Source: Vampirovibrio sp. (GTDB taxonomy: Bacteria; Cyanobacteriota; Vampirovibrionia; Vampirovibrionales; JAJTHC01). From it: 64,000 nucleotides of DNA. Location: positions 608,635 through 672,634 of the forward strand of contig CP050876.1 in NCBI GenBank assembly GCA_050916035.1. Direction: 5' to 3'. Below are positions 19,113-62,152 of the stretch, piece by piece. The notes under the pieces were generated by a model that had not been told where the DNA came from, made no database searches, and worked only from the letters and a program-made list of their open reading frames with translations. Every line of letters starts with the position of its first letter. Positions within the stretch are counted from its first letter, which is position 1. The translations under genes and the position numbers were made by a program.

Positions 19113-20072
19113 TTAGTGGTGCGTTTCTACAAGTGCCAAGGCTTCTGGCCCTACTTTAAGTCCGAGATCGTGCTTGCTTTGTTGTAAGGCCGTTTCCGCT
19201 TCATTAAGAGAGGTTTTGGCTTCGTTGAGCATGTATTGCATCAGCTGTGTGGCGGTGATGTCTGTATTTGTATTGTTTGTTTGTGTGTTTTTACCTTTTT
19301 CTAGGGCGATTTTGTTTTGGGCCAGTTGGTAAGTGGCCTCTAAAATCTGATATTGACTGGCTTGTAAAGACAGACGATCTTCAGCGGCTTTATAGTTGAG
19401 ATAAAGCGTCAAGAGTTCTTGTTGCAAGGTGTCAACGGCACGCGCGAGAATCACCATGTCTGCATCCGTCACGGGTTTGGTGTTGGAGGTATTACTTTGG
19501 GCAATAATGTCATTGACTAAGGCACCCGACAATAAACCCATAGGGGTGCCTGTCATAATGGAGGTCGCCGCCCCGCCCACTTGTGCCAAACCATTGACGA
19601 CTTGCTTGGTACGACTTTTTTGACGACTCGGCTTGCCGCTGGCATCTTGGCGGCTGAGTTTTTCAATGGCATAGCGAATGGGTTGACTACGATAAACCGC
19701 GGCTTGCCAGAGCATGTTTAAATCTTGATTTTGCGTCTCCGCTGCATCTAAGGTGTTTTCTCGAATCCGTTGAGTGGAGGCCGTCCATTGTTGTTCGTGC
19801 TGAAGGAGCACCCGTTGTTGCGAAGGGGAAAGACTTTCCATAAAGGCGGTGACTTGCTGGTGATAGTGCCGCTCCAAATTCGTATAGGCATTTTCTTGGG
19901 ACGCCTTCTGTGAATCCGTCCATGCCGTATTCTTGGACTTCAACACATCTAATTGTTGGGGGGTCACGGGGGAGGCTTGCATAAGTGGCATGGAGCAAAG
20001 CACGCTGACGCCTAAAAAGAATAGACTCAGAAGAGGCGCCCCATAAAAACGAGGCGTGATGAAAGCGGTCAT
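19113..20072 (-). CDS. Secreted hypothetical protein, paralog B of a tandem pair (coiled coil plus glycine-zipper-like segment)
   Basis: 319 aa; signal peptide. Its core LWQAAVYRSQPIRYAIEKLS...GLAQVGGAATSIMTGTPMGLLSGAL aligns with the upstream paralog. Confidence 0.6.
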   Translation of the reverse strand: MTAFITPRFYGAPLLSLFFLGVSVLCSMPLMQASPVTPQQLDVLKSKNTAWTDSQKASQENAYTNLERHYHQQVTAFMESLSPSQQRVLLQHEQQWTASTQRIRENTLDAAETQNQDLNMLWQAAVYRSQPIRYAIEKLSRQDASGKPSRQKSRTKQVVNGLAQVGGAATSIMTGTPMGLLSGALVNDIIAQSNTSNTKPVTDADMVILARAVDTLQQELLTLYLNYKAAEDRLSLQASQYQILEATYQLAQNKIALEKGKNTQTNNTNTDITATQLMQYMLNEAKTSLNEAETALQQSKHDLGLKVGPEALALVETHH

Positions 20073-21244
20073 AAGGCAGCATCCTCCATTAAGGGGAGTG
20101 CAGGATTTTCCCCATTAGGCTGGCTTTGGGGCGACTTGGGGGGAGTCAAAACGCGAGGGGTTTCACTTTGAAAAACGCGTGATTGCGCGACTTCTTTTTT
20201 CACCACAGGGGTTTCTAGCACCACATGGGACGCGTGAGGACGAATCCCAATGGCGAGTGTGTCAACGGCATTGGCCCCTGCGATACGTTCTAGCTGAATA
20301 CGGGCGTCTTGGGCTTGGGTTTCCACTTTTTGTAACTGCGCGCGAAATTTATAATAACGCTGAATGGCTAAAAAACGCTGCGTGGGGTCATGGTCCGCTT
20401 GAAATTTTTGAAAATGCGCTTCTTCACGGGCTTGTTCATTTTGTAATTGATTCAGCATAATCAGGGCCGCTTGGTAACGGTGGTATTCTTCCACCAAACT
20501 TTCTTTTAAATCGTCAATTAAATAAGACAGTTGAATATGTTCCGTGGGACTTAAGTCACTAATGGGTTTGTTGCGCCCCATCACGAAATTTTGAGCCACT
20601 TGACTGCCGGTCATCACGCCCATGCTTTCATAGCCCCCAATGGGGGCCACGGTGCTGCTGGCCAAGGCGGCTCCTGTAATCAGGACACTCAGCGTTTTTC
20701 GTAAAAATTCGCTGGAATGGGTCATATGCCGTTCAGGAGGCAACGCAATCTTTTCCAAGGCAAAGCGCACGACTTCGTTACGTTCAATGGTGGCTTGCCA
20801 TAAATGCTTTAAATCTGCTTCCGCCACTTCGTTTTGAAGTTGAATTAAGGTGACACTGGCCCCTAAGGCCTCTGCGTCTTTAATGGTTTTAACCGAAAGG
20901 CGGGGAACTAAGGCGATATTGGCTTGGGGCGCACGGCGTAAGGCATCCAAACTTTGAGGGGGGGACACGCCGTCTAGGGTGACGACGTCTTCTTTTTCGG
21001 TGGACGGCCACCCCAATGAGCCAGCAGTGGCTTTTGCGGAGGGGACCACAATTTTGTCATACGGGGTGAGCAAGGCGGGGACAAAGCTTAGGCGCGTTTT
21101 TGGGGGACTTGTGGGTTTGAAGAGGCGTGCTTCTAAAGGTGGGGGAGATAGACTCAAAAGCAGGACAAGGCCAAGCAACACGACAGGCCAAGGCCACGCG
21201 TGAACCGGAAAGACTTCAAAAGCAGGACAACTGATTTTCTTCAT
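20069..21244 (-). CDS. Secreted hypothetical protein, paralog A of a tandem pair
   Basis: 391 aa; signal peptide. Its core LWQATIERNEVVRFALEKIA...ITGAALASSTVAPIGGYESMGVMTGSQV aligns with the downstream paralog. Overlaps that gene by 4 nt. Confidence 0.6.
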   Translation of the reverse strand: MKKISCPAFEVFPVHAWPWPVVLLGLVLLLSLSPPPLEARLFKPTSPPKTRLSFVPALLTPYDKIVVPSAKATAGSLGWPSTEKEDVVTLDGVSPPQSLDALRRAPQANIALVPRLSVKTIKDAEALGASVTLIQLQNEVAEADLKHLWQATIERNEVVRFALEKIALPPERHMTHSSEFLRKTLSVLITGAALASSTVAPIGGYESMGVMTGSQVAQNFVMGRNKPISDLSPTEHIQLSYLIDDLKESLVEEYHRYQAALIMLNQLQNEQAREEAHFQKFQADHDPTQRFLAIQRYYKFRAQLQKVETQAQDARIQLERIAGANAVDTLAIGIRPHASHVVLETPVVKKEVAQSRVFQSETPRVLTPPKSPQSQPNGENPALPLMEDAAL

Positions 21245-21346
21245 AGGCGTCTATTATAGCACGCACCGTGAATAAACCAAGCCTTCCCCCGCCTACAAGT
21301 CCCTCAATAAAGGGACTTGTTTTCAGACGTTTTAAAATTTTTAAGC

Positions 21347-22138
21347 TTACCCCTGCAGGTTTAGGCCTTTCTCAGCGTTCTCACGCTTTATTTCTTCCCT
21401 TATTGGATTCCACCAGTCGTACTGCTCTTGAGCAGTAAGCTTATCTACGCGAGGGGTTTTGTTGTAAGCATTTAGGGTGCTCCAAGCGTCCTCTATTCCT
21501 TGTATATCTTGTTTGGGGTTTCCAGTAAGGGGAACCCCGAAGGAATCTACAATGTGAAGGGTCCCTTTTGGGTGTGTTTCGTATATTTTAGTATCGGTAA
21601 CAAATTTTGATTTTTCTAAAACCCTACTGGGTTCAATTGGCTCTCCATCCTTGTCTTTGGCCACTCGTGTAATGATTTTTTCTAAATTAATCCCTGTGTT
21701 CTTTTCAGAAGCAGATAAAGCACGAGCCTCCTCCAAATCCGTGTGAAGGCCGCCAAAAACGGTTTTAAATTTAAAGCTGGGGAGAAGCTCTTCCCCCGAC
21801 GTGGCGCTTTGTTTAGGATTAAGGATAATCCCTCCCTTGAAGGGGGTCTCTAATCTTGTGATGTAATCGACTTTGTTTTTGAGTGTTATCAAATTTTCAC
21901 CAGTCCATCCATAGAACTTGTTTAATTGCCTCACTACTTTAGCGTAGTCATAGTCAAAAGATCCGTGCAGCAGAACTTCATAGAAATCCGGTTGACCTGG
22001 AAGCGGCATTTTTTTGGGGTGGGGCGTCCGTCCTACCCATTGCATTCCTTCACGCTGATGGTTGGCCTTGGGGGCCATGCGGGGCGTGTTGGACGAGTAG
22101 GAGGAAGCGGGCGAATAGGGCGTTGGGGAGATCGACAT
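21347..22138 (-). CDS. Hypothetical protein with a Ser/Pro/Tyr-rich N-terminus
   Basis: 263-aa ORF; no recognisable family. Adjacent to the IS element. Confidence 0.5.
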   Translation of the reverse strand: MSISPTPYSPASSYSSNTPRMAPKANHQREGMQWVGRTPHPKKMPLPGQPDFYEVLLHGSFDYDYAKVVRQLNKFYGWTGENLITLKNKVDYITRLETPFKGGIILNPKQSATSGEELLPSFKFKTVFGGLHTDLEEARALSASEKNTGINLEKIITRVAKDKDGEPIEPSRVLEKSKFVTDTKIYETHPKGTLHIVDSFGVPLTGNPKQDIQGIEDAWSTLNAYNKTPRVDKLTAQEQYDWWNPIREEIKRENAEKGLNLQG

Positions 22139-22151
22139 GAGTGTTTAGACC

Positions 22152-22727
22152 TTATACGGTAAGTTTTCTCAAATGAAGGATGGCACAACCGAGTTCCCAA
22201 AAGGCTTGCCAATGTTCTCGCTTTCGTTCATAGCGTAAAACTAGCTTCCGAAAACCTTCCAACCAAGCAAAGGTCCGCTCAATGGTCCACCGTCCTTTGT
22301 AAATATCAGGCTTGGGGGTCCTCACTTTTGGCTTGTTTTTGAACTGTCGCTTGGGAATCACAGGCGTTAATTTTTTGTGCCGTAACTGCCGACGAAGCCG
22401 CTTGCAATCATAGCCTTTATCTGCCACAATGTAGCTGTTGGCGGGGATTTCCGCTAAAATGTGACCGAAGGCATGTCGGTCATGCCGATTCCCTTTTTCA
22501 ATATGAATCGCCTCAGGCAAGCCCGCTTCATTGGCAATGAGGCTTACTTTCGTGCCCTTTAATTTTCCTGCTCGTCCAACGCAATCGCCCTTTTTTTGCC
22601 GACTTAATCGTCGCATCGAGATAGTAGATTTCTTTGGTTTTTTCTTGAACTTCTTGCTTTTTTTGTTTGAATTGCTTGAATAATGCTTCAAAAAACCCTT
22701 CTTTTTGCCATACTTTAAACCGGTCAA
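22152..22727 (-). CDS. IS5-family transposase OrfB (DDE catalytic part), probably joined to OrfA by -1 frameshifting
   Basis: Contains ...IVADKGYD...WTIERTFAWLEGFRKL, a DDE_Tnp_1 signature. Overlaps OrfA over 22528-22727. Confidence 0.65.
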   Translation of the reverse strand: MTGLKYGKKKGFLKHYSSNSNKKSKKFKKKPKKSTISMRRLSRQKKGDCVGRAGKLKGTKVSLIANEAGLPEAIHIEKGNRHDRHAFGHILAEIPANSYIVADKGYDCKRLRRQLRHKKLTPVIPKRQFKNKPKVRTPKPDIYKGRWTIERTFAWLEGFRKLVLRYERKREHWQAFWELGCAILHLRKLTV

Positions 22728-40760: not shown

Positions 40761-41801
40761 GTGAGGAAACAAGGGATACAATGGGGTGTTAAAGTCGTTG
40801 CGGTTGGCGCAGCGGTGCCTCCAACGGTTTTGACCAATGATGATATGTCTAAAATGGTAGACACCACGGATGAGTGGATTCAGACCCGCACGGGAATTCG
40901 TACGCGCCATGTCCTAAGTGGCAATGAAATGCTGACGGATCTTTGTATTGAAGCGTCTCGACAAGCGGTTGCGATGGCGCCTTTTGAAGGAAGCGAAATT
41001 GACTTAATTATTGTGGCTACCACCACGCCAGATGAGCGTTACCCTGCCACTGCGTCTCGCATTCAAACGGCGATTGGAGCCACAAAAGCCTTTGGCTATG
41101 ATTTGGCCTTGGCGTGTACGGGGTTTGTGGCGGCTTTTATTACGGCGGATCAATTTTTACGCTCTGGTCTGTACAAGCGGGCCTTGGTGGTGGGGGCCGA
41201 TGCTCATTCTCGTGTCATGGACTGGACAGACCGTAATACCTGTGTGTTGTTTGGAGATGCGGCGGGTGCGGTTATTTTAGAAGCGAGTGACGTGTTTGAC
41301 GGCATACTGGCTCATGACGGAAATCTCGATGGAAGCAAGGCGGATGAACTGCATGCGGATTATCAGTTGGTGAACTGTCCGATTCTTCCTCAGCCCGATC
41401 CCCGCAGTCCTTATGTGCAGATGAATGGCCGTGAAGTCTTTAAATTTGCAGTAGGCGTGGTGCCTTCTTCCATTCGTCAAACCCTTGAAAATGCCGAATC
41501 CACGCTTGAAGATATTGATGTCTTGATTCTCCATCAAGCCAATATCCGTATTATGGATGCAATGAATGAACGCTTGGGAATCCCTCGTGAAAAAATGGTC
41601 ATTAACTTAGACCGTTATGGGAATACGTCGGCTGCGTCCATTCCTTTGGCCTTGAATGAAGCGGTGCGAAGTGGGCAAGTCCAAAACGGGAGTCGTGTGA
41701 TGCTTTGTGGTTTTGGCGGCGGTCTCGCGTGGGCGTCGAGTTTCTTTGTGTGGTCTGGTCCTTCTTTCAATGGACTGGAAGAAAAAGGAGCGGTCTCATG
41801 A
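40761..41801 (+). CDS. fabH: 3-oxoacyl-ACP synthase III
   Basis: KASIII active-site region (ACTGFV) and C-terminal GFGGGL; synteny. Confidence 0.9.
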   Translation: MRKQGIQWGVKVVAVGAAVPPTVLTNDDMSKMVDTTDEWIQTRTGIRTRHVLSGNEMLTDLCIEASRQAVAMAPFEGSEIDLIIVATTTPDERYPATASRIQTAIGATKAFGYDLALACTGFVAAFITADQFLRSGLYKRALVVGADAHSRVMDWTDRNTCVLFGDAAGAVILEASDVFDGILAHDGNLDGSKADELHADYQLVNCPILPQPDPRSPYVQMNGREVFKFAVGVVPSSIRQTLENAESTLEDIDVLILHQANIRIMDAMNERLGIPREKMVINLDRYGNTSAASIPLALNEAVRSGQVQNGSRVMLCGFGGGLAWASSFFVWSGPSFNGLEEKGAVS

Positions 41802-42769
41802 TGTCTAAAGTGGCGTTTGTATTTCCAGGACAAGGTTCTCAGTACTTGGGGATGGGAGAGGACCTTTATCAACACTTGCCTGAAGCTAAGGCTTTGTTGG
41901 ATCAGGTCAATGCTTTGGTGACTCCCAATGAAGCGGGACAATCTTTATTAGAATTGATGTTTACAGGGCCTGCGGAAGAATTGAACCGTACTATTTATAC
42001 GCAACCTGCTATTTTGGCCGTGTCCTTGGCTTGTTTCTTCGCGTTTCAGGCGCAAGTGTCGCTTCAGCCTGTTGCGGTAGCAGGTCATAGCTTGGGTGAA
42101 TTTTCAGCCTTGGTGGCGTCTAAGGTGTTGACGCTCGCTGAAGTGGTACCGACGGTCGAGCAACGGGCCCGGTTGATGGAATCCGCGCCTCAAGGGACGA
42201 TGGCTGCGGTGTTGGGGCTGTCGGCTTTAGAGGTTCAAACGGTGTTGTCGACTTTGCCTACCTCAGCAGACGCGTGGGCCGTTGTGGCCAATGATAATTC
42301 GCCTGCTCAGGTGGTGATTTCAGGCACGGAAGCGGGGCTTGCCCTTGCGATGCCTGCGTTGAAAACGGCAAAAGCCAAGCGAGTTTTACCTTTACCTGTG
42401 GGAGGAGCCTTCCATTCTCCTTTAATGAAGGGGCCTGCTCAAGCCTTTGCCACGGTTTTAGAAACTTTGGCTTTTCAGTCGGCTCAGGTTCCGGTGATTA
42501 GTAATGTGGATGCAGCGCTTCGACAAGAGGCGACGGCTTTGGCAGAAGCGTCTCAGGCCCAAATGTCGTCCCCCGTTCAATGGACAAAAACGATGCGTCA
42601 GTTGGTTGAAACTTGCAAGGTGGATGCCATCATTGAGTTTGGGCCAGGGAAGGTGTTGTCTGGATTGATGAAAAAGACCTATCCAGATGTTTTGGTATAC
42701 AATATATATGATTTAAATTCGCTCGCCGAAGTGGTGCATGTTTTTCAGGCGTGCCCTGCCAATGTTTAA
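41798..42769 (+). CDS. fabD: Malonyl CoA-ACP transacylase
   Basis: FVFPGQGSQYLGMG and GHSLGE motifs. ATGA overlap with fabH. Confidence 0.9.
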   Translation: MMSKVAFVFPGQGSQYLGMGEDLYQHLPEAKALLDQVNALVTPNEAGQSLLELMFTGPAEELNRTIYTQPAILAVSLACFFAFQAQVSLQPVAVAGHSLGEFSALVASKVLTLAEVVPTVEQRARLMESAPQGTMAAVLGLSALEVQTVLSTLPTSADAWAVVANDNSPAQVVISGTEAGLALAMPALKTAKAKRVLPLPVGGAFHSPLMKGPAQAFATVLETLAFQSAQVPVISNVDAALRQEATALAEASQAQMSSPVQWTKTMRQLVETCKVDAIIEFGPGKVLSGLMKKTYPDVLVYNIYDLNSLAEVVHVFQACPANV

Positions 42770-50856: not shown

Positions 50857-51261
50857 CTACCAGCGACCACCGCCGCCACCACCGCCGTAACCGCCGCCGC
50901 CAGAGCGACCGCCACCACCACCGCCGCCGTAACCGCCGCCGCCACCAGAGCGACCGCCGCCACCGCCGCCGCCGCCACGGTAGCCACCGCCACCGCCACC
51001 GCCGCCAACTGGGCGAGCTTCACGAGGGCGAGCTTCGTTTACACGTAAGACTTTACCATTCATGTCAAAACCATCTAAACGCTCAATGGCAACTTTGGCT
51101 TCTTCGTCATTGTCCATTTCGACAAAGGCGAATCCACGCGAACGTCCTGTTTCACGATCGATAACAATACGGCAGGATTGAACCTCACCAGCATCTACAA
51201 ATAAGGCCAACAATTCATCATCGCTCGCAGAAAAAGGCACGTTGCCCACATATAATTTCAT
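50857..51261 (-). CDS. Glycine-rich RNA-binding protein (single RRM plus GGY/RGG tail)
   Basis: RNP-2 LYVGNV and RNP-1 RGFAFVEM; C-terminal GGGGGGYRGGGGGG repeats. Confidence 0.85.
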   Translation of the reverse strand: MKLYVGNVPFSASDDELLALFVDAGEVQSCRIVIDRETGRSRGFAFVEMDNDEEAKVAIERLDGFDMNGKVLRVNEARPREARPVGGGGGGGGYRGGGGGGGGRSGGGGGYGGGGGGGRSGGGGYGGGGGGGRW

Positions 51262-51545
51262 AATCAAAAGTTCCTAAATAATAAAGTCTCGCCAACAGAG
51301 TAAAACATTTTTTCGCGACTGGCGAAATTATCGCAAAAAAATGGGAAGCTTTTAAAAAATCAAAACGTCGAAACCGAAAACTTCTGAACTCTTTACTACC
51401 AAAAATGCGAGGCATCTTTATCACAAACACTGAATAGGAACATCGAAGGTTCTTCAAAAAAGGGCTTTGGAAAGATCAAAACACTGGTATTTCGAGGCAA
51501 GGGTCAAAGCGAAAACACGTCTGATTTACTCGTTCATACGATGTA

Positions 51546-51989
51546 AGCTTCCCCTTAAAAAATGGTGGAGTCGGAGGGAATCGAACCCTCGTCCAAAACG
51601 ATTGCCTCCAAGCTTCTACGAGCGTAGGTCTCTTCAAATTTTCGTTTCACTGTAGTCATGTACCCTGATTCACAGTGAACTTTAACCCGTTTTACGTCCG
51701 TGTTCAGACGTATAGACGATACACTGTACAGAAAAAGTCTATAAGTCTTTCTGCATGGTCATGCGAATTAACAAGCCCACCTTAGCAGCATGATAGCTTG
51801 TGTGGGGGATAAAGTTACTTAACTGGTAAGGAACTAAGCAGCTAGCTGCTTACGACCAAATAATTGAACAACATTATCAGCAGTTTGAGTTTCTGCATTT
51901 ATTGTTTTGCTCAGGATTAACGAGGATTAAGCGTCCTCGGCTCGCCACTCAGTCACAAGAATTCGTCCTGTCAAGTCCAGAACGACCCC
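51546..51989 (-). ncRNA. ssrA: tmRNA (SsrA), one-piece; predicted tag AETQTADNVVQLFGRKQLAA
   Basis: On the minus strand. The 5' end GGGGTCGTTCTGGACTTGACAGG resembles the canonical GGGGCTGATTCTGGATTCGACGGG. The 3' end is GGACGAGGGTTCGATTCCCTCCGACTCCACCA. The tag reading frame runs GCAGAAACT...AAGCAGCTAGCTGCTTAG. Boundaries are approximate. Confidence 0.8.
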
Positions 51990-52167: not shown

Positions 52168-53379
52168 TTAAACGTGCAATAGTTGTAACAATAAGTGGGC
52201 GATGTCATGGGTAGCTCTGGGTTTGGCCAATTGGCTTAAGGCTTTTTTCATTTGAGCCCTTTGGGCTTGATTCTGGCGTAGACTTTGAAGCGTGGCCACC
52301 AAGCGAGTGGCGCTTAAATCCTCTTCAGCCAAGAGGATCCCCGCCCCTTGTGCTTCCACAAAGCGCGCATTGGCGTCTTGATGGTTTTGAGCCGCATAGG
52401 GAAAAGGAACTAAAATGGCGGGGGTTTGGCTACTAAACAGTTCAGACAAGGTCATGGAACCCGCCCGACAGACTGCGACATCCGCAAGGGCCCACAGCGC
52501 AGGCATTTGCTCCACAAAGGGAAGGCAGACATAAGACGCGGGAAAGGGTGATTCTGTGGCGTATCGAGCCAATAACGCCGATTTCATCGTGGCGTGATGC
52601 TTCACCCCACATTGATGCACGATTTTAAAGCCCGCTTCTACCAAAGGGCTTAAGGCATCTACCATGGTTTCATTGAGCCTTAAAGCGCCTTGAGACCCCC
52701 CAATGACCACGAGGATTTCATCGCTCGCGCTCCAGCCCATGGGTAAAATAGGTCCCAATGCCTCCAAGGACTCTGTTTTGCTGATCGACCCCATGCGGTG
52801 GTCGACGGGGTTACCCGTGTGATAAAAGCGAGCTTCGGCGACGTTTAGGGCTCGGCCTATTTCAGGGAATGCCCCTGTGACTTTGGTGGCTTTGGGCGCC
52901 ATGAGACGGTTGACGAGGCCTGGGGTGGCGTCACTTTCATGCACTATAAAGGGAATTTTTAAGATAAAGGCCGCTAGTAAGACGGGGCCTGCCACATAGC
53001 CCCCTGTACCTAAAACCGCTTTGGCGTCTAGACTTTTGAGGTAACGCATGGCCAGAATGGTGGCTTGAAACATTTCAACGGCCCAGCGCATCAGCACAAT
53101 CGGGTTTTTGCGCCGAGGCATCCCATGGCTGACCAAGGGTAAAAAGGGGATGCCTCTGGTGGGGACTTTTTGAGCCTCTAGACTATCTTCATTGCCAATA
53201 TAGGTAATTTGCTGGAGTGAAATGCCAAATTCACGCACCAATGCATCCGCCACGGCCAAGGCAGGGTAAAGATGCCCCCCTGTGCCTCCCCCTGTTAGAA
53301 CAATTGAAGCGTTCGCGTGTTTCACATGGCAATCCTTATCTTTCAGCGATGCGCTTATCGCCCCATCGCCAAACGGCAT
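52168..53379 (-). CDS. murG: UDP-N-acetylglucosamine--N-acetylmuramyl-(pentapeptide) pyrophosphoryl-undecaprenol N-acetylglucosamine transferase
   Basis: VLTGGGTGGHLYPALAVADAL N-terminal motif; GT28 fold, about 360-400 aa. Confidence 0.85.
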   Translation of the reverse strand: MPFGDGAISASLKDKDCHVKHANASIVLTGGGTGGHLYPALAVADALVREFGISLQQITYIGNEDSLEAQKVPTRGIPFLPLVSHGMPRRKNPIVLMRWAVEMFQATILAMRYLKSLDAKAVLGTGGYVAGPVLLAAFILKIPFIVHESDATPGLVNRLMAPKATKVTGAFPEIGRALNVAEARFYHTGNPVDHRMGSISKTESLEALGPILPMGWSASDEILVVIGGSQGALRLNETMVDALSPLVEAGFKIVHQCGVKHHATMKSALLARYATESPFPASYVCLPFVEQMPALWALADVAVCRAGSMTLSELFSSQTPAILVPFPYAAQNHQDANARFVEAQGAGILLAEEDLSATRLVATLQSLRQNQAQRAQMKKALSQLAKPRATHDIAHLLLQLLHV

Positions 53380-53446: not shown

Positions 53447-55546
53447 TTAGTCTTCTAAATTAATAGAGGCCACGGCTTGCACCTTCACATCGGGGATGAG
53501 TTCACTATAGGCCAAGACCACCGTGTGGGGCAGGTGGCGATCTAGCAATTCAAAGAGCGGTAAACGAATGCGTGGGGAACATAAAATGACAGGGGGCTTG
53601 CCGTAATGCTGTTGAACCATGCGAGTGGTGTCACTAATGGCTTGAATCAGTTGTTGGACTTGCATAGGGTTCAATAAAAACATGACCCCTAATTCGGTGC
53701 GTTGGCAGGCTTCATCCAAAACCGTTTCCCATTCATTCGACAAAGTCGCCGCCAGTAACTGCTTGTTTTTATCGGCATGAGAAATACAGATTTGACGCCC
53801 CATGGCCGCGCGTAGGCGTTCAGACAGCGTGTCGGATTCTCGGCTAAAGCGGGCGTAGTCACTCAGGCGTTCAAAAATAAATTGAATGTCTTTAATCGAG
53901 ACTTTTTCTCGAATGAGGTTGACGAAAATTTTACGTAAGTCGTTGGGCGTCAGCATATTGGGGACAAGTTCTTGAATGACGCTGGGGTCACTGCCTCGCA
54001 TCAGTTCCATGAGTTTAAGCACGTCAATTTTGGTCATGACGTCATCCACATATTTAATCACGATGCTTTGTAAGTGAGTAATGACGGCATCGGTGGATTC
54101 AACGGCAACCGTTTGTAGTTGTTCTGGAATATCGGGTTGTGCCACCCATAAGGCGGGTACATTTAAGGTGGCATCCGTGCCTTGAATCACTTGGGCAGGG
54201 GGTGCGACGCTATAGGTGTCAAAATAACTTTGTAGAATCATGTAATAGCCTGGGTAGACTTTCCCTGTGGCCACGGGGTTCCCTCGAATAGAAACGAGGT
54301 ATTCATAGGGTTCAATATCGGAGGAATCCATAATACGGATATTGGGGAGAATAAAGCCGAGTTCATCGGTCAATCGGGTCCGTAAGCCTGCGATTTTACC
54401 CAAAAGCTGGCCGTCTTGTTCAGGGTCTGCAATCTGAAGGAGGCTCGCGCCCACTTGAAGACTGAGGACATCCACACCCATGCGTTCATACATGCGATTG
54501 GGGTCAATCATTTGTTGCATGTTTTCTTGTACTTCTTGTAATTCACCCATTTGTTGTTGAACGTCAGTGGTAATGAAGACGCTAAAGGCCATGCCGCCTA
54601 AAATTAAGGCAAATAAAACAAAGGGCCACCAGCTGAGTCCTGTAATGGAAGAGGTCACGGCGATAAACATTAAAAATAAGGCGGCAAAAATAAGGCCATA
54701 GGGTTTGCCTCTAAACTGAGTGAAGAAATCTTTAGCAAGACTATCAGACACACTGGTGGTACGGGTCAGGGTGATCCCAATGGCCACGGACATAATGAGC
54801 GCGGGAATTTGAGAGGCCAGTCCATCCCCGATCGTCAGAATCGTATACTTGTTGACGGCTTCCATAATGGGTAGGCCCTTCATTAAGACCCCAATGGCAA
54901 TCCCTCCGACAATGTTGATAATGGTGATGATGATCGCGGCAATGGAGTCCCCTTTGACGAACTTCATCGCACCGTCCATCGAACCGAGCAGGGACATTTC
55001 TCGCTGTAAGTTTTCGCGCAGTTGACGGGCTTGATCTGGCCCAATAAACCCTGCGTTTAAGTCTCCATCAATTTGCATTTGTCGCCCCCCCAAGGAGTCC
55101 AAGGCAAATCGGGCCCCTACTTCGGCCACCCGTTCCGACCCTTTGGTAATAACCATAAAGTTCACCACCAGAATGATTAAAAACAAAATAACCCCAACCA
55201 CCATATTACCCCCTGTAACGAAGACCCCAAAGGCTTCAACCATGGCCCCTGCATGACCATTGGCCAAAACAGCACGCGTGGTGGCAATCCCTAGGGACAA
55301 ACGAAACAAGGTGGACACCAAAATCAAAGACGGAATAGCCGCTAAATCTAAGGGCTGTTTGACGTAAAGGGACATCATGAGTAGGACAACGGCCAGACTA
55401 ATGTTAAAGGCGATAGAGGCGTCAATAAACCAGTCGGGCAACGGCACCAAAATAATTAAGATGAGCAATAAGACCCCAAAAACGAGTAAAATCTCACTAA
55501 TGGGCGGAATGGCAAAGGCATTGTTAGCAGGGGCGGCCATCATCAT
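53447..55546 (-). CDS. flhA: Flagellar-type III secretion export gate FlhA (FHIPEP family)
   Basis: Near-collinear similarity to E. coli FlhA across the TM and FHIPEP region (NFMVITKGSERVAEVGARFALD, DADLNAG, SMDGA.KFV.GD, LTIGDGL.SQIPAL). Confidence 0.85.
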   Translation of the reverse strand: MMMAAPANNAFAIPPISEILLVFGVLLLILIILVPLPDWFIDASIAFNISLAVVLLMMSLYVKQPLDLAAIPSLILVSTLFRLSLGIATTRAVLANGHAGAMVEAFGVFVTGGNMVVGVILFLIILVVNFMVITKGSERVAEVGARFALDSLGGRQMQIDGDLNAGFIGPDQARQLRENLQREMSLLGSMDGAMKFVKGDSIAAIIITIINIVGGIAIGVLMKGLPIMEAVNKYTILTIGDGLASQIPALIMSVAIGITLTRTTSVSDSLAKDFFTQFRGKPYGLIFAALFLMFIAVTSSITGLSWWPFVLFALILGGMAFSVFITTDVQQQMGELQEVQENMQQMIDPNRMYERMGVDVLSLQVGASLLQIADPEQDGQLLGKIAGLRTRLTDELGFILPNIRIMDSSDIEPYEYLVSIRGNPVATGKVYPGYYMILQSYFDTYSVAPPAQVIQGTDATLNVPALWVAQPDIPEQLQTVAVESTDAVITHLQSIVIKYVDDVMTKIDVLKLMELMRGSDPSVIQELVPNMLTPNDLRKIFVNLIREKVSIKDIQFIFERLSDYARFSRESDTLSERLRAAMGRQICISHADKNKQLLAATLSNEWETVLDEACQRTELGVMFLLNPMQVQQLIQAISDTTRMVQQHYGKPPVILCSPRIRLPLFELLDRHLPHTVVLAYSELIPDVKVQAVASINLED

Positions 55547-55624
55547 GGGGGTAGGGGGCTCTTTCTGGGGGAGGGGCGTTCTGGTCGTGTTAGATAGGGA
55601 ATAAACAGGGGGGCTTCGGTGTCT

Positions 55625-56569
55625 TTAGGGGGCATCAAAGGCGGGTGCTTCCCACGCGTCTGTCGGGGCATGTTCTCCTTCGAGTAGGTGGTCAAACTCC
55701 GCTTTGGCGTTGGATTGTGACGCAATGGCCACGTTTGGTAATCCTAGAATTTTTCGTATCATATGCAGTTGAGTATGAAAGCTTGCATCAATCTGTCCAC
55801 CAGAGGTTTCGACAATGCAGCTGCCTTCATCCACGTCGGCATCACCCACCACTATTATATGCCGTTGGACTTCGCCTTGCCACGTTTCTTCATGGTCTTT
55901 GATGTGTTGACGCAACAGTTTTACATCATGTGGATGAACTTTAAAGACGACTTCTTTTTGGGTGCGGTCGACTTTTCCTAAAACATCTAAGGCAATGCCG
56001 ACCACTAAGGCGCGATCACAAGACACTTCTACCTTAATGAGTCGTTGTGCAATGGCCATGGCCATGGGAACGATGTCTTGTACCGATTTTTCTAAGACTT
56101 GGTTTTTAATGGTTTCTAACTGATCCAAAATCTGCCAAATTTCTTCAGAGGCTTGATGGGCTTCCTTCATGCCTTCTGCATGCCCCGCTTCATAGCCGTG
56201 TTGATACCCTTCGCTTTGCGCTTGAGTAAAGCCTTCTTGTCTTCCCGCTTGTATGCCTTGGGCATGGCCTTCTTCATAGGCTTGCTGGAAAATGGCTTGT
56301 GGGTCCACGGGAGGTTCATGATCACTACGCCGCCGCTTCGGTTCCCCGCCTTCTGCTGTGGTAGGTGGAGTCGTGTGAGGTGCTTCCGTCCAAATGAGTT
56401 GGTTGACAAAATCATCTTGCCCGTCCTGAGCCAAGGGGGAGGGATGAGGATGCTGTCCGCCTCCCGTGATGTGTTCAAGCCAAGGGGGCAGGGCTTGGCC
56501 GTCCTGAGTGTTGGGGCGAGCAGTTGGGGTCGCGGGTTTTCGTGAACGAACGTTTTTAATGAGGGGCAT
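55625..56569 (-). CDS. fliH: FliH-like flagellar export ATPase regulator (FliH/SctL family)
   Basis: N-terminal GxxxG repeat region (AYEEGHAQGIQAGRQEGFTQAQSEGYQHGYEAGHAEG). C-terminus GSCIVETSGGQIDASFHTQL matches the FliH C-terminal GGCxxET..G.IDAS motif. Confidence 0.7.
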   Translation of the reverse strand: MPLIKNVRSRKPATPTARPNTQDGQALPPWLEHITGGGQHPHPSPLAQDGQDDFVNQLIWTEAPHTTPPTTAEGGEPKRRRSDHEPPVDPQAIFQQAYEEGHAQGIQAGRQEGFTQAQSEGYQHGYEAGHAEGMKEAHQASEEIWQILDQLETIKNQVLEKSVQDIVPMAMAIAQRLIKVEVSCDRALVVGIALDVLGKVDRTQKEVVFKVHPHDVKLLRQHIKDHEETWQGEVQRHIIVVGDADVDEGSCIVETSGGQIDASFHTQLHMIRKILGLPNVAIASQSNAKAEFDHLLEGEHAPTDAWEAPAFDAP

Positions 56570-56627
56570 AGCAATGGCCTTGTGATTTTAGATACTTTTA
56601 GGTACTTCGTGTTTAAGTGCTTAGCAT

Positions 56628-57821
56628 TTAAATAAGTAGAATCTTTTGATAATAGCTTAGCATTGCTTCTTCCAAAGGAGTAGGCCATTGGGGAAGCTGT
56701 TCGTAGGCTTGGGGATGATTTTGGAGGCGGCCAGCGGTTTTAAAGAACCGCTGAAGCTTGGAGCGTTCTCCTGTGATTAAAGCTTCGAGTCTGTGGCGAT
56801 AGTCAGGGTTTGTAAAAATTTCAGTCATGGCGTTTCGTGTTCGTTGTTGTTGGGAGGCAGGGTCTTGTGCCACGTGTTGAATGGTTTGCTTAAAGGTGTT
56901 CAACTGGGCGAGAACAGCTTGCATCGGCAGTTCATTTGCGACATGGTCCACATCCATATAATATATAATTTGGTGAACCATTTCAGCAGGGAATTGTTGA
57001 AACCATTCTGCTTGAACCGCTTCGGATTGCGTACTTAAAAAAAGTCCGAGTGCGGCAAGTTTTAGGCGTATCCTTTCATGGTGAGGCGCTTCGTTTGATG
57101 AAAGGGTGTGTGCAGGGGCCAAGTCCACAGGGGGAAAGTCTTGCGAATGGGGGGTAGGATGAACCCTAGGCGCTAGGTCAGGGCTTTGATGAAGCACAGG
57201 GTCTTGTGTCGTCGTGTTGAGTGCGGGGGTATCCGTATGAGGGGCCTTATTTTGAAAGCGATTGCTTGGTGCTTCATGCGGTAGGGCTTCTGGTTCTATG
57301 GGTCCATGTAATTGTTCGTATTCGCCTAGGTAGTGATGCAAAGCACTGGCGACCATTTGTTCCATCCAGCCTTGCAGTTGCGCGTCACTAAATTGGACAT
57401 CGGGGGTTTCTTCTTGGCCCACAGTAGCAGAAACCAATTGCTTGGCATGGGCAAAGGCGTCTTGCGCCAAGCCTTGTAAAATAACCGATTTAGGTTCCCC
57501 TGTCACGCCTAAGGCTTGGGCTTTGATGCTGGCAAAAATAATGGCATGGGTAAAAAGGCCTAATACCTTATAACAATGATGAACATTAAAGGCTAAATAG
57601 ATCGCTTTAGGGTCATGCTGGGGTTGAAAACCGGGTTCCTGCTGAAGTAAGCTGACGGCAACTGCAATAAAATGTGCGGTAATATCGGTAGAGCGTTTAA
57701 TTTCATCTATTTTGAGTCCCGCTTGACTCAGGGCGTCGGTTACTTTTTCGGCAAATTCCACCGAAAGGGCTTCGGCGTTCATGTTAATAATAGCAGGATC
57801 AACAGGGGGGCGTTTAGCCAT
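56628..57821 (-). CDS. Hypothetical protein occupying the FliG position in the operon; only weak FliG middle-domain resemblance
   Basis: 397 aa. The segment PAEMVHQIIYYMDVDHVANEL is loosely similar to the FliG EHPQ block ([22 protein letters not shown]). Confidence 0.35.
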   Translation of the reverse strand: MAKRPPVDPAIINMNAEALSVEFAEKVTDALSQAGLKIDEIKRSTDITAHFIAVAVSLLQQEPGFQPQHDPKAIYLAFNVHHCYKVLGLFTHAIIFASIKAQALGVTGEPKSVILQGLAQDAFAHAKQLVSATVGQEETPDVQFSDAQLQGWMEQMVASALHHYLGEYEQLHGPIEPEALPHEAPSNRFQNKAPHTDTPALNTTTQDPVLHQSPDLAPRVHPTPHSQDFPPVDLAPAHTLSSNEAPHHERIRLKLAALGLFLSTQSEAVQAEWFQQFPAEMVHQIIYYMDVDHVANELPMQAVLAQLNTFKQTIQHVAQDPASQQQRTRNAMTEIFTNPDYRHRLEALITGERSKLQRFFKTAGRLQNHPQAYEQLPQWPTPLEEAMLSYYQKILLI

Positions 57822-57842
57822 GAGACAAGTTCCTTCAATGGC

Positions 57843-59600
57843 TTAGTCTGGCGCACTGAGCCATTGATTCAGGTTGATATCACGTGGACGAAGGGCAGGG
57901 CTTGCGTTTGAAGAAGGCTTCAGACTTTGATTAAGATCTTTTAAGGCGTCTTTTAATTTTTGCGCATTTTGTTGTTGTGTGCGCTCCAAGACTTGATGTT
58001 GTGCTTCTTGGGCTTGCATCAATTGTTGATTTAATTGTTGTTGATACTGTAAGTGGGTTTGCGTTTCTTCCGCATGCTGCCGTAATTGTTGAAGTTCACT
58101 AATCGCTGAATCTAAGGTTTCAGCCGTATTTTGGACTTTCCCACTACTGCCCATGAGCAGCATTAAGGCGACGGCCCCAATCACGGTAATGGCCATCCAA
58201 GGCAGCCATGTCATCACGCCTGCGGCGGCTTCAGGGCTTAAGCCGGGCATGAAAAAATTGGCGCTATTGACGGGGGCTTCAGGCAAGGGGTCTTCCCCTT
58301 CTAGCGGTTTAGGGTTTTCAAAATCCGTACGGGCCAAGCTCACGTGTTCAGGGTCTACTCGTGGACTAGCCGCACGAGCCACCAAGACTTGTAAATCTTC
58401 AGGAGGAATATTGGGATAAAATTCATCGTCAATGGTCACCGCAATGGACACGGCTTCTACCATGCCAGGGACACTGGTTTCTACCCATTGGGTATGGCCG
58501 TTTTGATAACTCACTTCCGTGCCTTCACGGACGTAGCCATCTTCTTCCTGACTTTGCGTCATTTGGCCAAGCCCTTCGACCGCTTGGCCAATGGCGACTT
58601 TACTGTCGAGTTCAGGGGGTAAAAAGCCTGAAACGGCTCCTCCTGATTTCATCCCTGAAGTCCCTGAATGACTGGCACCGCCTAAACTTTCTTGAAAGCG
58701 TTGTTTAGAGGCCACAACAGACTTACTGGGGTCATAATTTTGGACCATGGTTTCTTTGGGGGATTCTCTCAAAAAGGTTGAAACCGTCACCACATAATGG
58801 CCTTCTCCAATGAGTTTGTCTAATTGCGCTGAAATTTTTTGCTTCATATAAAAATCTTGATCGGCGGCCTTGTCTTGCAGTTCTAAGGCGGAGTCTAGCA
58901 CACTATTATAGGTATTGCCATTGGTGTCTGAAAGGGCCACATGCTTGGCTTCAAGTCCTTGTATCCCCCCTACCATCAGGTTAATAATGGCGCGGACCTT
59001 GTCGCGAGTGAGCCGTTCCCCTGGGGGCAAGGTCACTTGTACAGCGGCAGACGGGGGACGACGATCACTGGCAAACAGAGTGGGGTCGGGGACTGAAATT
59101 TTGACATGGGCATCTTCTACAGGAGGCATTTTTCGGATGATGCGGGCCAAATCGCCTTCTTGTCCTCGAATCAGTTTGATTTGCTTTTCTTCACGGCTGG
59201 CCATCATATCGCTGTTATCAAAGGCTTCCATCCCGAGTTTTCCATCCATTAACCCCGATTGAGCCAAGGTTAAAAGGGCTTGATCCCGATCATTTAAGGT
59301 CGCATCTTCCGCAAACATCAAGGAGACCTTCCCCCCTGTACCTGCTAAGGTATCGAGCCGAATATCCTGCCGAGAGAGTAAGGCTCTAATTTCAACGGCT
59401 TTGCCTGCGGCAATATCGGTGGCCAAGGGCAGCTGTTCTTCGGTCAGCACTTTCGCGCCTTCATCCACTTTGACTTCTTTTCCATTGCCACTGCCTGCGA
59501 CGGCCACGACAATAATGAGCACGATGAGCAGGACGACCCCTCCAATGACGGCATAGAGCATTTTTTTATTGTCGAGCAATGCTTGTAACTGTGGGGGCAC
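57843..59600 (-). CDS. fliF: Flagellar MS-ring protein FliF-like (YscJ/FliF family)
   Basis: 585 aa; N-terminal TM (LYAVIGGVVLLIVLIIVVAV), a YscJ/FliF-type periplasmic domain, a second TM near residue 470 and a C-terminal coiled coil. Confidence 0.7.
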   Translation of the reverse strand: MPPQLQALLDNKKMLYAVIGGVVLLIVLIIVVAVAGSGNGKEVKVDEGAKVLTEEQLPLATDIAAGKAVEIRALLSRQDIRLDTLAGTGGKVSLMFAEDATLNDRDQALLTLAQSGLMDGKLGMEAFDNSDMMASREEKQIKLIRGQEGDLARIIRKMPPVEDAHVKISVPDPTLFASDRRPPSAAVQVTLPPGERLTRDKVRAIINLMVGGIQGLEAKHVALSDTNGNTYNSVLDSALELQDKAADQDFYMKQKISAQLDKLIGEGHYVVTVSTFLRESPKETMVQNYDPSKSVVASKQRFQESLGGASHSGTSGMKSGGAVSGFLPPELDSKVAIGQAVEGLGQMTQSQEEDGYVREGTEVSYQNGHTQWVETSVPGMVEAVSIAVTIDDEFYPNIPPEDLQVLVARAASPRVDPEHVSLARTDFENPKPLEGEDPLPEAPVNSANFFMPGLSPEAAAGVMTWLPWMAITVIGAVALMLLMGSSGKVQNTAETLDSAISELQQLRQHAEETQTHLQYQQQLNQQLMQAQEAQHQVLERTQQQNAQKLKDALKDLNQSLKPSSNASPALRPRDINLNQWLSAPD

Positions 59601-59820
59601 GTGCAGTAAGTTCCTGATTTTTTTTGATGAGCAGAAGATGTTTATTCTAGTTTAACAAGTTCTATATCGACGTTTCAGTAATCTTGAAGGGCTTCCACCG
59701 TTTGACGGACGCGTGCAGGGGTTGATCAATTTTAGTCTTTTGTGGATTTTCTTTTAAAAAGGGTGGACTCCGTAGTATGATACTTCTAGTTTTCTTCTTT
59801 ATATTTGGAGTATTGAGTGC

Positions 59821-60819
59821 ATGCCTAGTTCGCGAATTGTTTTTATGGGGACGCCTTCTTTTTCAGTCCCTTGTCTAGACACCTTATGTCATAGCTCTGG
59901 TTTTGAGGTGGTGGCGGTGGTGACTCAGCCCGATCGCCCTGCAGGACGAGGCAAGCAATTCACGCCTTCCCCCGTGAAGGTCTTTGCCACAGAAAAAGGC
60001 ATTCCTGTCTTTACGCCTGAACGCTTGCGTCAGGATGAAGCGTTGATTGACGCCATCGCGGCTTTGGCCCCTGATTTCATCGTGACCATCGCCTTTGGTC
60101 AAATTCTTCCCACACGAGTCTTGGAAATTCCTAAAGGAGGGGTCGTCAATGTACATGCGTCTTTATTGCCCGCTTATCGAGGCGCCAACCCCATTCAATG
60201 GGCTATTTTAGACGGGCAATCTGAAACGGGACTCACCACCATGTTGAGCGATGAAGGCGTCGATACGGGCGCGATGCTTTTAAAACAGGTGCTGCCCATT
60301 GATGCGGAGGATACGACAGGGAGTTTATCTATTAAATTGGCCGAGGTCGCAGGGGGGCTTTTACTAGACACCTTGAACGCTTTAAAAGAAGGGCGACTCA
60401 CCCCTGAACTTCAGGATGATACGTTGGCAACACAGGCACCAAAGCTTAAAAAGGAATCGCTTGCGGTGGATTGGTCTCGTTCGGCGCGTCAGGTCAAGCA
60501 GTATATTCAAGCCTTGACTCCTGCCCCTGGAGCGAAAGTCTATTTAAAACGAGGAGACACAACGGAAGACAGTCCCATTAAAATCGGCAAAATTTCCGTG
60601 CGGGAAGATTCTACAGAAGTTTACGAAACAACACAGGGCCTTGTCTTTGGTCAAATAGTGGCGTTAGATCACGCAGGTATTCACGTCCAAACGGGCGATG
60701 GCCACTTGTGTATTGAAACCCTCCAACCGGCGGGAAAAGGTATGATGAAGGCTTCCGATTGGGGACGGAATCGCTTGTCTTTGACGGGAGATTCTACAGA
60801 ACGCGTGTGTTTTGTTTAA
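59821..60819 (+). CDS. fmt: Methionyl-tRNA formyltransferase
   Basis: RIVFMGTPSFSVP N-terminus, NVHASLLPAYRGANPI formyltransferase motif and a C-terminal domain. Confidence 0.9.
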   Translation: MPSSRIVFMGTPSFSVPCLDTLCHSSGFEVVAVVTQPDRPAGRGKQFTPSPVKVFATEKGIPVFTPERLRQDEALIDAIAALAPDFIVTIAFGQILPTRVLEIPKGGVVNVHASLLPAYRGANPIQWAILDGQSETGLTTMLSDEGVDTGAMLLKQVLPIDAEDTTGSLSIKLAEVAGGLLLDTLNALKEGRLTPELQDDTLATQAPKLKKESLAVDWSRSARQVKQYIQALTPAPGAKVYLKRGDTTEDSPIKIGKISVREDSTEVYETTQGLVFGQIVALDHAGIHVQTGDGHLCIETLQPAGKGMMKASDWGRNRLSLTGDSTERVCFV

Positions 60820-60874
60820 ATATTTGCTAGAATACTTATATTGATGAATCTTGAGGGGGAGGCGAGAAAATCGT

Positions 60875-62152
60875 ATGATGATGATGTCACAACATCCGAT
60901 GAAAGAATTTTATAATGACACGTTTTATATGGCGCAACAACAGTTGGATGCAGTAGCGGAATCCATGAATTTGGATGCGGGGATTCATGAACGCTTGCGC
61001 TTTCCTCGTAAATCATTGATTGTGTCCGTCCCCATTAAGCTGGATAACGGCAGTACTAAATTGTTTATGGGCTACCGTGTTCAGCATGATCAGACGCTTG
61101 GGCCATCCAAGGGGGGGGTTCGCTTTCACCATGACGTACAGCTTGGGGAAGTGGCGGCCTTGGCCATGTGGATGACGTGGAAATGTTCCTTGTTGAATTT
61201 GCCCTACGGTGGCGCCAAAGGCGGGATTTGTTGCTTCCCTGAAGAAATGAGCGAAAATGAACTCGAACGCTTAACACGGCGATATACGACGGAAATTTTA
61301 TCCATGATTGGCCCTGAAAAAGATATTCCCGCGCCAGACATGTATACCAATGAAAAAATTATGGCGTGGATGATGGATACCTATTCCAACTTTATTGGGT
61401 ATGCCGTCCCTGGCGTGGTGACAGGTAAACCGGTTAGTGTAGGGGGAACTTTGGGACGTGTGGAAGCCACAGGTCGTGGGGTGGCCTTGACGGTTGATTT
61501 GGCCGTTCAGCGTTTGGGGATTAAGGCTGAGCATCCGACCGTTGCGGTTCAAGGGTTTGGGAATGTGGGAAGTATTACCGCAAAATTTTTACACCAAAAA
61601 GGCTATAAAATTGTCGCTATTACGGATGTTAAAGGCGGTATCTACGACCCTTCGGGCATTGATGTGCCGAAGCTTCAAGCCTACGTGCGAGAACAGGGTT
61701 CTGTGGAGGGGTATCAACCGGGGGAGTCGCTGGATTTAAAGGCGATCTTTGAGTTGGAGGTGGATGTCTTGGTGCCTGCGGCCGTGGCCAATTGTATTAC
61801 GGCAGAAAATGCAGATCGGGTGCGCGCGAAGATTGTGGCGGAAGGGGCCAATGGTCCTGTCACAACGGAGGCTGACCATATTTTGGATGAAAAAGGCATT
61901 TATGTGATTCCTGGTATTTTAGCCAATGCAGGGGGTGTGGTGGTGTCTTACTTTGAATGGGTACAAGACATTCAACACCTGTTTTGGACCGAAGGCGAAG
62001 TCACCGATAAATTAACTTTTTTAATGACCAAAGCCTTTGACGAAGTGTTTCATACGGCGTTGGAAAAAAAGGTGTCGCCTCGAACCGCAGCCATGATGAT
62101 TGGTGTGGGCCGTGTCGCAGAAGCCAAGAAACTTCGGGGGCTTTATCCTTAG
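60875..62152 (+). CDS. Glutamate dehydrogenase (Glu/Leu/Phe/Val dehydrogenase family)
   Basis: GPSKGGVRFHHDV...PYGGAKGGI catalytic motifs. Confidence 0.85.
   Translation: MMMMSQHPMKEFYNDTFYMAQQQLDAVAESMNLDAGIHERLRFPRKSLIVSVPIKLDNGSTKLFMGYRVQHDQTLGPSKGGVRFHHDVQLGEVAALAMWMTWKCSLLNLPYGGAKGGICCFPEEMSENELERLTRRYTTEILSMIGPEKDIPAPDMYTNEKIMAWMMDTYSNFIGYAVPGVVTGKPVSVGGTLGRVEATGRGVALTVDLAVQRLGIKAEHPTVAVQGFGNVGSITAKFLHQKGYKIVAITDVKGGIYDPSGIDVPKLQAYVREQGSVEGYQPGESLDLKAIFELEVDVLVPAAVANCITAENADRVRAKIVAEGANGPVTTEADHILDEKGIYVIPGILANAGGVVVSYFEWVQDIQHLFWTEGEVTDKLTFLMTKAFDEVFHTALEKKVSPRTAAMMIGVGRVAEAKKLRGLYP

Follow-up and report, generated by a model that had tools for sequence, protein, structure and literature searches.

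What does a short run of flagellar-type export genes mean in a stretch of genome that carries no other flagellar gene? The question is raised by a 64,000-nucleotide stretch of the Vampirovibrio sp. contig CP050876.1 (hereafter the window; positions are counted from its first letter), in which fliF, a gene in the position of fliG (designated X), fliH and flhA follow one another on the minus strand. The sequence-only reading of this DNA took the missing partner genes as a sign of a reduced, repurposed apparatus of the kind described for endosymbionts and Chlamydiae. We consider another answer the likely one: the four genes form a conserved core module, part of the flagellar-type type III export apparatus and basal body of Melainabacteria, and the partners of this module are dispersed. 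The arrangement is typical of the lineage within the Melainabacteria, and the Vampirovibrionales scatter these genes.

The gene identities were established with Pfam and NCBIfam hidden Markov models (HMMs), which confirmed the domains of the operon-like run described earlier; its coordinates are as given there. The gene for the MS-ring protein, fliF (57843-59600, 585 aa, GTG start), has the Pfam domains YscJ_FliF (E-value 8e-32) and YscJ_FliF_C (4e-10). X (56628-57821, 397 aa) has no Pfam or NCBIfam match. The fliH gene (55625-56569, 314 aa) encodes the regulator, or stator, of the export ATPase (Pfam FliH, 5e-19), while flhA (53447-55546, 699 aa) encodes the export gate, whose good conservation was borne out by a full-length FHIPEP match (1.7e-201). 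All four open reading frames (ORFs) are intact and follow one another head to tail, in minus-strand orientation, with intergenic gaps of 21, 58 and 78 nt; a sequence scan found no terminator-like site on this strand between the four genes or ahead of murG, the next gene. Judged from this layout, co-transcription is plausible; the terminator count at the locus equals the expectation from shuffled sequence, and promoter and terminator scans are weak evidence. The window FlhA is 100% identical to that of a contig from a Lake Mendota Vampirovibrionales metagenome-assembled genome (MAG). It is also identical to XVJ51148.1, and X is identical to HEQ32_03315 of NCBI; both entries are on a 2,037,776-bp MAG contig of ‘Vampirovibrio sp.’. 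The DNA thus belongs to the Melainabacteria (Vampirovibrionia), relatives of the cyanobacteria that do not photosynthesize.

The order fliF-X-fliH-flhA is found in >50 melainabacterial loci (denoted by L numbers where they have to be told apart). The complete cluster is present in the Gastranaerophilales locus L020, where it reads flgF-flgG-flgB-flgC-SLT-fliE-fliF-X-fliH-flhA-fliI-fliJ-fliK-like-flgE-like; fliI directly follows flhA in 13 Gastranaerophilales loci (tblastn), and the same gene order has been published for ACD20 (PMC3787301). The cluster of V. chlorellavorus, a species motile by a polar flagellum (PMC4451040), reads flgF-flgG-flgB-RDD-flgC-SLT-fliE-fliF-(170 aa)-X-fliH-flhA. With the clusters of ACD20, the gut Gastranaerophilales and V. 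chlorellavorus the window shares orthologous genes in the same order, with 58-65% identity in FlhA and X being homologous throughout the class, but its module is cut off from the upstream rod genes and from the downstream fliI-fliJ-fliK-flgE and stands between fmt and murG. Identity of the window FlhA to its counterparts in other Vampirovibrionales and in Gastranaerophilales is 57-65%. Another difference from the cluster of other Vampirovibrionales is the ∼170-aa ORF that these carry between fliF and X (L081 7521-8033, L004 7555-8076, L006 7443-7931); its sole match is a very weak one to T3SS_CopN_3rd, and it is absent from the window's clade as well as from Gastranaerophilales.

The isolation of the module is shared with the closest relatives. 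Loci L083 (FlhA 77% identical to that of the window) and L084 (95%) contain the same isolated four-gene cluster with different neighbours. In relatives with ∼90% identical FlhA (L082 and L085 of JGI sample 3300079870, and L002), flhA is parted from fliF-X-fliH(-dnaX); in the JGI metagenome the two are on separate contigs. More distant relatives, with 70-71% identical FlhA, have flhA alone: in L086 near fliS, with fliI 5 kb off, and in L087 near flgF. Gene order around the module changes quickly within the window's clade. In L086, a 70%-identity relative, the gene for the flagellin chaperone, fliS (8382-8879), is found 1 kb upstream of the solitary flhA, a hint that part of the clade may still export filament proteins. 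A regular-expression search of 83 loci found neither FliP nor FlhB near any melainabacterial flhA.

A trace of synteny was seen on the fmt side of the module. In L087/L088 (1309-4850; 71% relative) a glutamate dehydrogenase gene divergently adjoins flhA, while in the window fmt and fliF-X-fliH stand between the glutamate dehydrogenase gene (60851-62152) and flhA. This residual synteny would fit if the three upstream genes had been relocated.

The fate of fliI in these relatives bears most directly on the question. The L086 FliI shares 74% identity with the FliI linked to flhA in L020 and is therefore the orthologue that goes with the module. GCA_024998755.1 is the MAG from which L083 comes; its FliI gene is a lone one, flanked by rpsP/HHH_3, hypothetical genes and rplKA, on a contig other than that of the isolated four-gene cluster; on Lake Mendota contigs it is a singleton in the same context. 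V. chlorellavorus also has a singleton FliI of the module type, beside genes for Fic, an integrase and pantothenate kinase. An unlinked fliI is the norm in Vampirovibrionales, a motile member included. Since fliI is a singleton in the relatives, its absence from the window says little about its absence from the genome. The observation made earlier, that the window contains no gene for FliI, FlhB, FliPQR or any flagellar structural protein, was upheld by tblastn and Pfam searches: FlgF/G/B/C, FliE, FliI, FliJ, FliK and FlgE of relatives gave no tblastn match in the 64 kb, and FlhB and FliP/Q/R are absent from it. The step from there to a reduced and repurposed apparatus does not follow in a lineage that scatters these genes.

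Could the proteins belong to a non-flagellar type III secretion system (T3SS), an injectisome relative misread as flagellar? The name given to FlhA by PGAP, ‘FHIPEP family type III secretion protein’, would allow it, and the NCBIfam flagellar models all score below their cutoffs: FliF reaches 111 bits against TIGR00206 (fliF; cutoff 129.75), and the FliH models (E-value 5e-30) stay under theirs, as do the SctL models (4e-17). The protein superfamilies are those of SctJ, SctL and SctV, but for FliF, FliH and FlhA alike the flagellar models outscore the Sct models. FlhA scores 634 bits with TIGR01398 (FlhA) vs 551 with TIGR01399 (SctV); in PDB its best full-length scores are 408 bits for Salmonella FlhA and 352 for an SctV, and the difference is largest for the cytoplasmic domain, with 182 bits for B. 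subtilis FlhA_C and ≤98 for SctV_C. FliF is of the long type, with an FliF_C domain, and its best PDB match is Salmonella FliF (84 bits; EscJ, 22 bits). The Pfam FliH score is 69 bits against a cutoff of 24. In addition, the cluster of the relatives is embedded among flgB/C/F/G, fliE, fliK and flgE, and Pfam searches of the large ORFs of the window found no gene for the secretin SctC, for SctD or for needle proteins. By sequence affinity FlhA and FliF are clearly of the flagellar, not the injectisome, type; we find the injectisome explanation scarcely credible and effectively refuted already.

FliF has transmembrane segments at its N- and C-terminus and a cytoplasmic tail ending in the conserved motif ...LNQWLSAPD. 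The FliH translation shows the AxxxG/GxxxG run EEGHAQGIQAGRQEGFTQAQSEGYQHGYEAGHAEG and the string QIDAS, in agreement with the GxxxG repeats and IDAS motif reported before; the N-terminus of FliH is long and of low complexity. In FlhA the equivalents of R147, R154, D158 and D208 (charged residues of the transmembrane/FHIPEP region) are conserved, and so are the chaperone-dimple positions D456 and T490 of Salmonella FlhA, F459 being replaced by L.

The gene in the fliG slot is another matter. It had been described as a divergent FliG-position gene; the position holds, the identity as FliG does not, as none of the rotor/switch domains FliG_N, FliG_M and FliG_C is found above threshold in X. Residues 1-175 of the protein make up an N-terminal helical domain and residues 245-397 a C-terminal one, with a linker between them (178-245) that is Pro-rich and disordered; an AF2 model built with 15 homologues shows two helical domains with such a linker (pLDDT 74). 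The Vampirovibrionales X is homologous over its full length to the 320-345-aa Gastranaerophilales protein of the same slot (hhalign probability 99%, E-value 5e-18). Among 50 members of the X family, sub-threshold matches were to MgtE_N (24 members), FliG_N (5) and FliG_M (5), all in the C-terminal ∼150 residues, and none to FliG_C; the best FliG_N score was 23.8 bits, with a gathering cutoff of 25. Against PDB, the profile of the C-terminal domain hit Aquifex FliG (3hjl) with an E-value of only 0.2, the full-length profile gave no match, and fold searches with the X model did not find FliG. A profile search of 1.84 billion representative proteins returned only 112 relatives of X. Weak matches of 314-346 aa to the X profile were considered as a true bridge to FliG and rejected, being Gastranaerophilales X proteins; none of the 10 weakest matches tested was a canonical FliG.

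X is not a recognizable FliG and ought not to be annotated as one; it belongs to a family restricted to Melainabacteria with a C-terminal domain, and only that, resembling FliG_N or MgtE_N. It seems to lack the FliM-binding and stator-binding domains of FliG, none being detectable. The C-terminal (I/L)xxW(I/L)(E/S) motif of FliF is kept in all melainabacterial orthologues and presumably resembles the FliG_N-binding tail of canonical FliF; X is probably an adaptor that docks on the FliF tail via its FliG_N-like domain.

A further explanation is that the four genes are a decaying relic, functionless leftovers of a flagellum on the way to being lost. Partners that are unlinked and a gene order that is unstable among close relatives are what such a relic would present, but the ORFs are all intact and the same genes are kept across the whole class. 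Amino-acid identity to L084, the closest relative with the cluster, is 95% for FlhA, 83% for FliF, 71% for FliH and 62% for X, with ratios of nonsynonymous to synonymous substitution rates (dN/dS) of ∼0.03 for FlhA, ∼0.08 for FliF and ∼0.11 for both X and FliH; synonymous sites are saturated in this comparison and the ratios are approximate. All four genes are under purifying selection. The low dN/dS and the high identity in spite of saturated synonymous sites indicate that the genes are maintained by selection, and we judge decay to be very improbable.

The reduced or repurposed apparatus deserves more weight. It supposes that the small 2.04-Mb genome lost its filament, hook and motor genes, and perhaps the rod genes, leaving a minimal exporter of MS ring and export gate, in parallel with proposals made for Buchnera and for non-flagellated Gastranaerophilales. 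A similar subset is indeed kept by non-flagellated Melainabacteria (PMC3787301, PMC4040986, bioRxiv 10.64898/2026.04.24.720558). Several observations speak for it and weigh against the dispersed-module explanation that we prefer. With the L086 FliI as query, the genome's own FliI was found neither among the representatives of the 120 best FliI clusters nor among the members listed for them (a listing that leaves out 17 members of P0146 and four clusters of two members), and a regression of FliI on FlhA identity predicts an own FliI ∼79-82% identical to that of L086, hence within the listed range. A metagenome scan for FlgF, run with fixed and insensitive patterns from a 3-sequence alignment, gave nothing from the window's close relatives. 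FlhA and FliF evolve somewhat faster in the window's group than in other Vampirovibrionales; FlhA of this group is ∼60% identical to the Gastranaerophilales outgroup, compared with 64-65% for other Vampirovibrionales. Finally, canonical FliG is linked to the module in no melainabacterium, and X has neither FliG_M nor FliG_C, the domains that bind FliM and the stator.

Against reduction stand the limited and indirect nature of the negative searches and the presence of FliI in the closest MAG whose contigs are accessible. No role of FliH is known where FliI is absent, yet the protein is under purifying selection; the chaperone-binding residues of FlhA_C are conserved; and fliS near flhA in the 70%-identity relative hints at filament export in the wider clade. 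The FliI and FlgF negatives for the genome itself are weak, yet they leave real reduction some standing; on balance we regard it as unlikely.

The dispersed core module, in our preferred explanation, would have the following history. In the ancestor the module would have been part of one long operon, flgF-flgG-flgB-flgC-SLT-fliE-fliF-X-fliH-flhA-fliI-fliJ-fliK-flgE. In Vampirovibrionales this operon would have been broken and its pieces dispersed among housekeeping genes, which would be why only fliF-X-fliH-flhA are still together in the window genome; the partners fliI, flhB, fliPQR and the rod genes should then lie in other parts of the 2.04-Mb chromosome. As to the division of labour, FliF would form the MS ring in the inner membrane, the FliG_N-like domain of X would probably dock on the tryptophan-containing FliF tail, FliH would tether and regulate the FliI ATPase, and FlhA would form the nonameric export gate.

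Compared with the fliE and fliFGHIJK operons of Salmonella or the fla/che operon of B. subtilis, the locus shares the succession of FliF, a cytoplasmic adaptor and FliH, together with the defining Pfam domains; it differs in that no FliG_M or FliG_C is detectable in the fliG slot, that flhA and not fliI comes after fliH, and that fliI is unlinked. The gene set and context had been called unusual, which they are beside such textbook operons and are not among Melainabacteria. The sets of Buchnera and the FliF/FliH/FliI/FlhA paralogues of Chlamydiaceae, for which a secretion role was proposed, likewise consist of few export and basal-body genes with no linked filament genes. They were defined by genome-wide absence of the rest, whereas the window case was read from 64 kb alone; the chlamydial models match the window proteins very weakly (PRK05910, 207 bits with a cutoff of 670; PRK05934, 20 bits), and the state of the window would be inherited from a flagellated ancestor in a free-living or predatory clade.

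The surroundings of the module were as described before: murG (52168-53379) lies directly beyond it, 67 nt from flhA, and fmt (59821-60819) is divergent, upstream of fliF. The spacer between fliF and fmt (59601-59820) has a promoter-like TTTAAA-18-TAAAAT at 59758-59729 on the minus strand, found by a consensus scan only. A functional link of the module to murG or fmt was considered and rejected, the neighbours being different in every relative; because of these differences the adjacency to murG and fmt is taken as accidental, a probable by-product of rearrangement. Horizontal acquisition of the cluster was rejected as well, its GC content (0.48-0.49) being within the range of the window (0.40-0.49) and the cluster being vertically conserved.

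Beyond murG, a tmRNA gene (51563-51989, minus strand; tag peptide AETQTADNVVQLFGRKQLAA) is followed by the gene of an RNA-binding protein of the RRM type, the long tail of which is rich in Gly (GGGGYRGGGG; 50857-51267, minus strand). A homologue of the latter adjoins flhA in L086 (9339-9719; 70% relative), and another is present on the Lake Mendota MAG contig L001 (4339-4707).

The many effector-like hypothetical proteins that had been noted around the module did not survive domain analysis. Pfam detected housekeeping functions only, and no flagellar gene, among the 30 other large ORFs of the window (EF-Tu, the S10 ribosomal operon, plsX-fabHDGF, UvrA, M16 peptidase, Fur, GH8 and a transposase among them); just eight of the 30 are without a Pfam match at E ≤ 0.001, one more matches only DUF6449, below threshold, and nothing effector-specific supports the claim. 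Three of the ORFs with no Pfam domain (319, 391 and 263 aa) are consecutive and lie with an IS-type DDE transposase gene (22152-22727) in a minus-strand region (19113-22727); this region, with tuf and the S10 ribosomal operon close downstream, may be an insertion. A plus-strand ORF of 1603 aa (8837-13648) has as its sole match a weak one to the AsmA family near the C-terminus. The fabH and fabD ORFs as listed (40761-42769, plus strand) overlap by ∼97 nt (41705-41801), probably as a result of a mechanical ORF call that chose an upstream TTG start for fabD.

If the four genes are the core of an export apparatus, is this apparatus the one that builds the motility flagellum? Flagellar genes have been described in Melainabacteria and Vampirovibrionia since 2013 (PMC3787301, PMC4040986, PMC4451040). 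For V. chlorellavorus, the IMG annotation in Table S3 of Soo et al. 2015 has two copies of most core genes, namely fliF, fliH, flhA, flhB, fliPQR, flgB/C, fliE, flgE, fliJ and motAB (PMC4451040). One set is canonical, having flgB-flgC-fliE-fliF-fliG-fliH-fliI in one operon and fliPQR-flhB-flhA in another, along with the genes for ring, junction, cap and switch; canonical fliG is in this set only (PMC4451040). The other set is orthologous to the module of the window. ACD20 has two flhA genes (PMC3787301). The duplicate sets and singleton FliI of V. chlorellavorus, along with the two flhA genes of ACD20, suggest a tentative possibility, to which we give some but limited credence: that the module belongs to a second, FliG-less flagellar-type system universal in Melainabacteria, paralogous to the motility flagellum and independent of it. 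Its parts may be rod proteins, FliE, FliF, X, FliH, FlhA, FliI, FliJ, a FliK-like protein, a short FlgE-like protein, FlhB and FliPQR.

Published tables suggest that the module is kept as such a second set even in relatives with no flagellum. MEL.A1 has no filament, cap, junction or L/P-ring genes (PMC3787301), partial flagellar sets were reported in six of nine Gastranaerophilales genomes (PMC4040986), and ∼75% of gut Gastranaerophilales genomes keep a flagellar subset (for example flhB, fliI and flgG) for which a secretion role was ‘postulated’ (bioRxiv 10.64898/2026.04.24.720558). This ∼75% subset matches the gene set of the module. The literature searched had nothing specific on a second flagellar or type III secretion system in Vampirovibrio. 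The small genome of the window may have only the second system, which may then be a non-rotating, rod-building export machine with X in place of the rotor protein.

The locus is a further case of the melainabacterial flagellar gene cluster that has already been described. An isolated fliF-X-fliH-flhA module is to be expected in Vampirovibrionales, and its local context alone gives no ground for proposing a new secretion system. The second, FliG-less system, if confirmed, would illustrate how a machine derived from the flagellum can serve a different function in nature, and would be the one retained in non-flagellated relatives. In every melainabacterial cluster the fliG slot is occupied by a protein other than FliG, and one may ask by what means, if at all, the apparatus couples to a stator.

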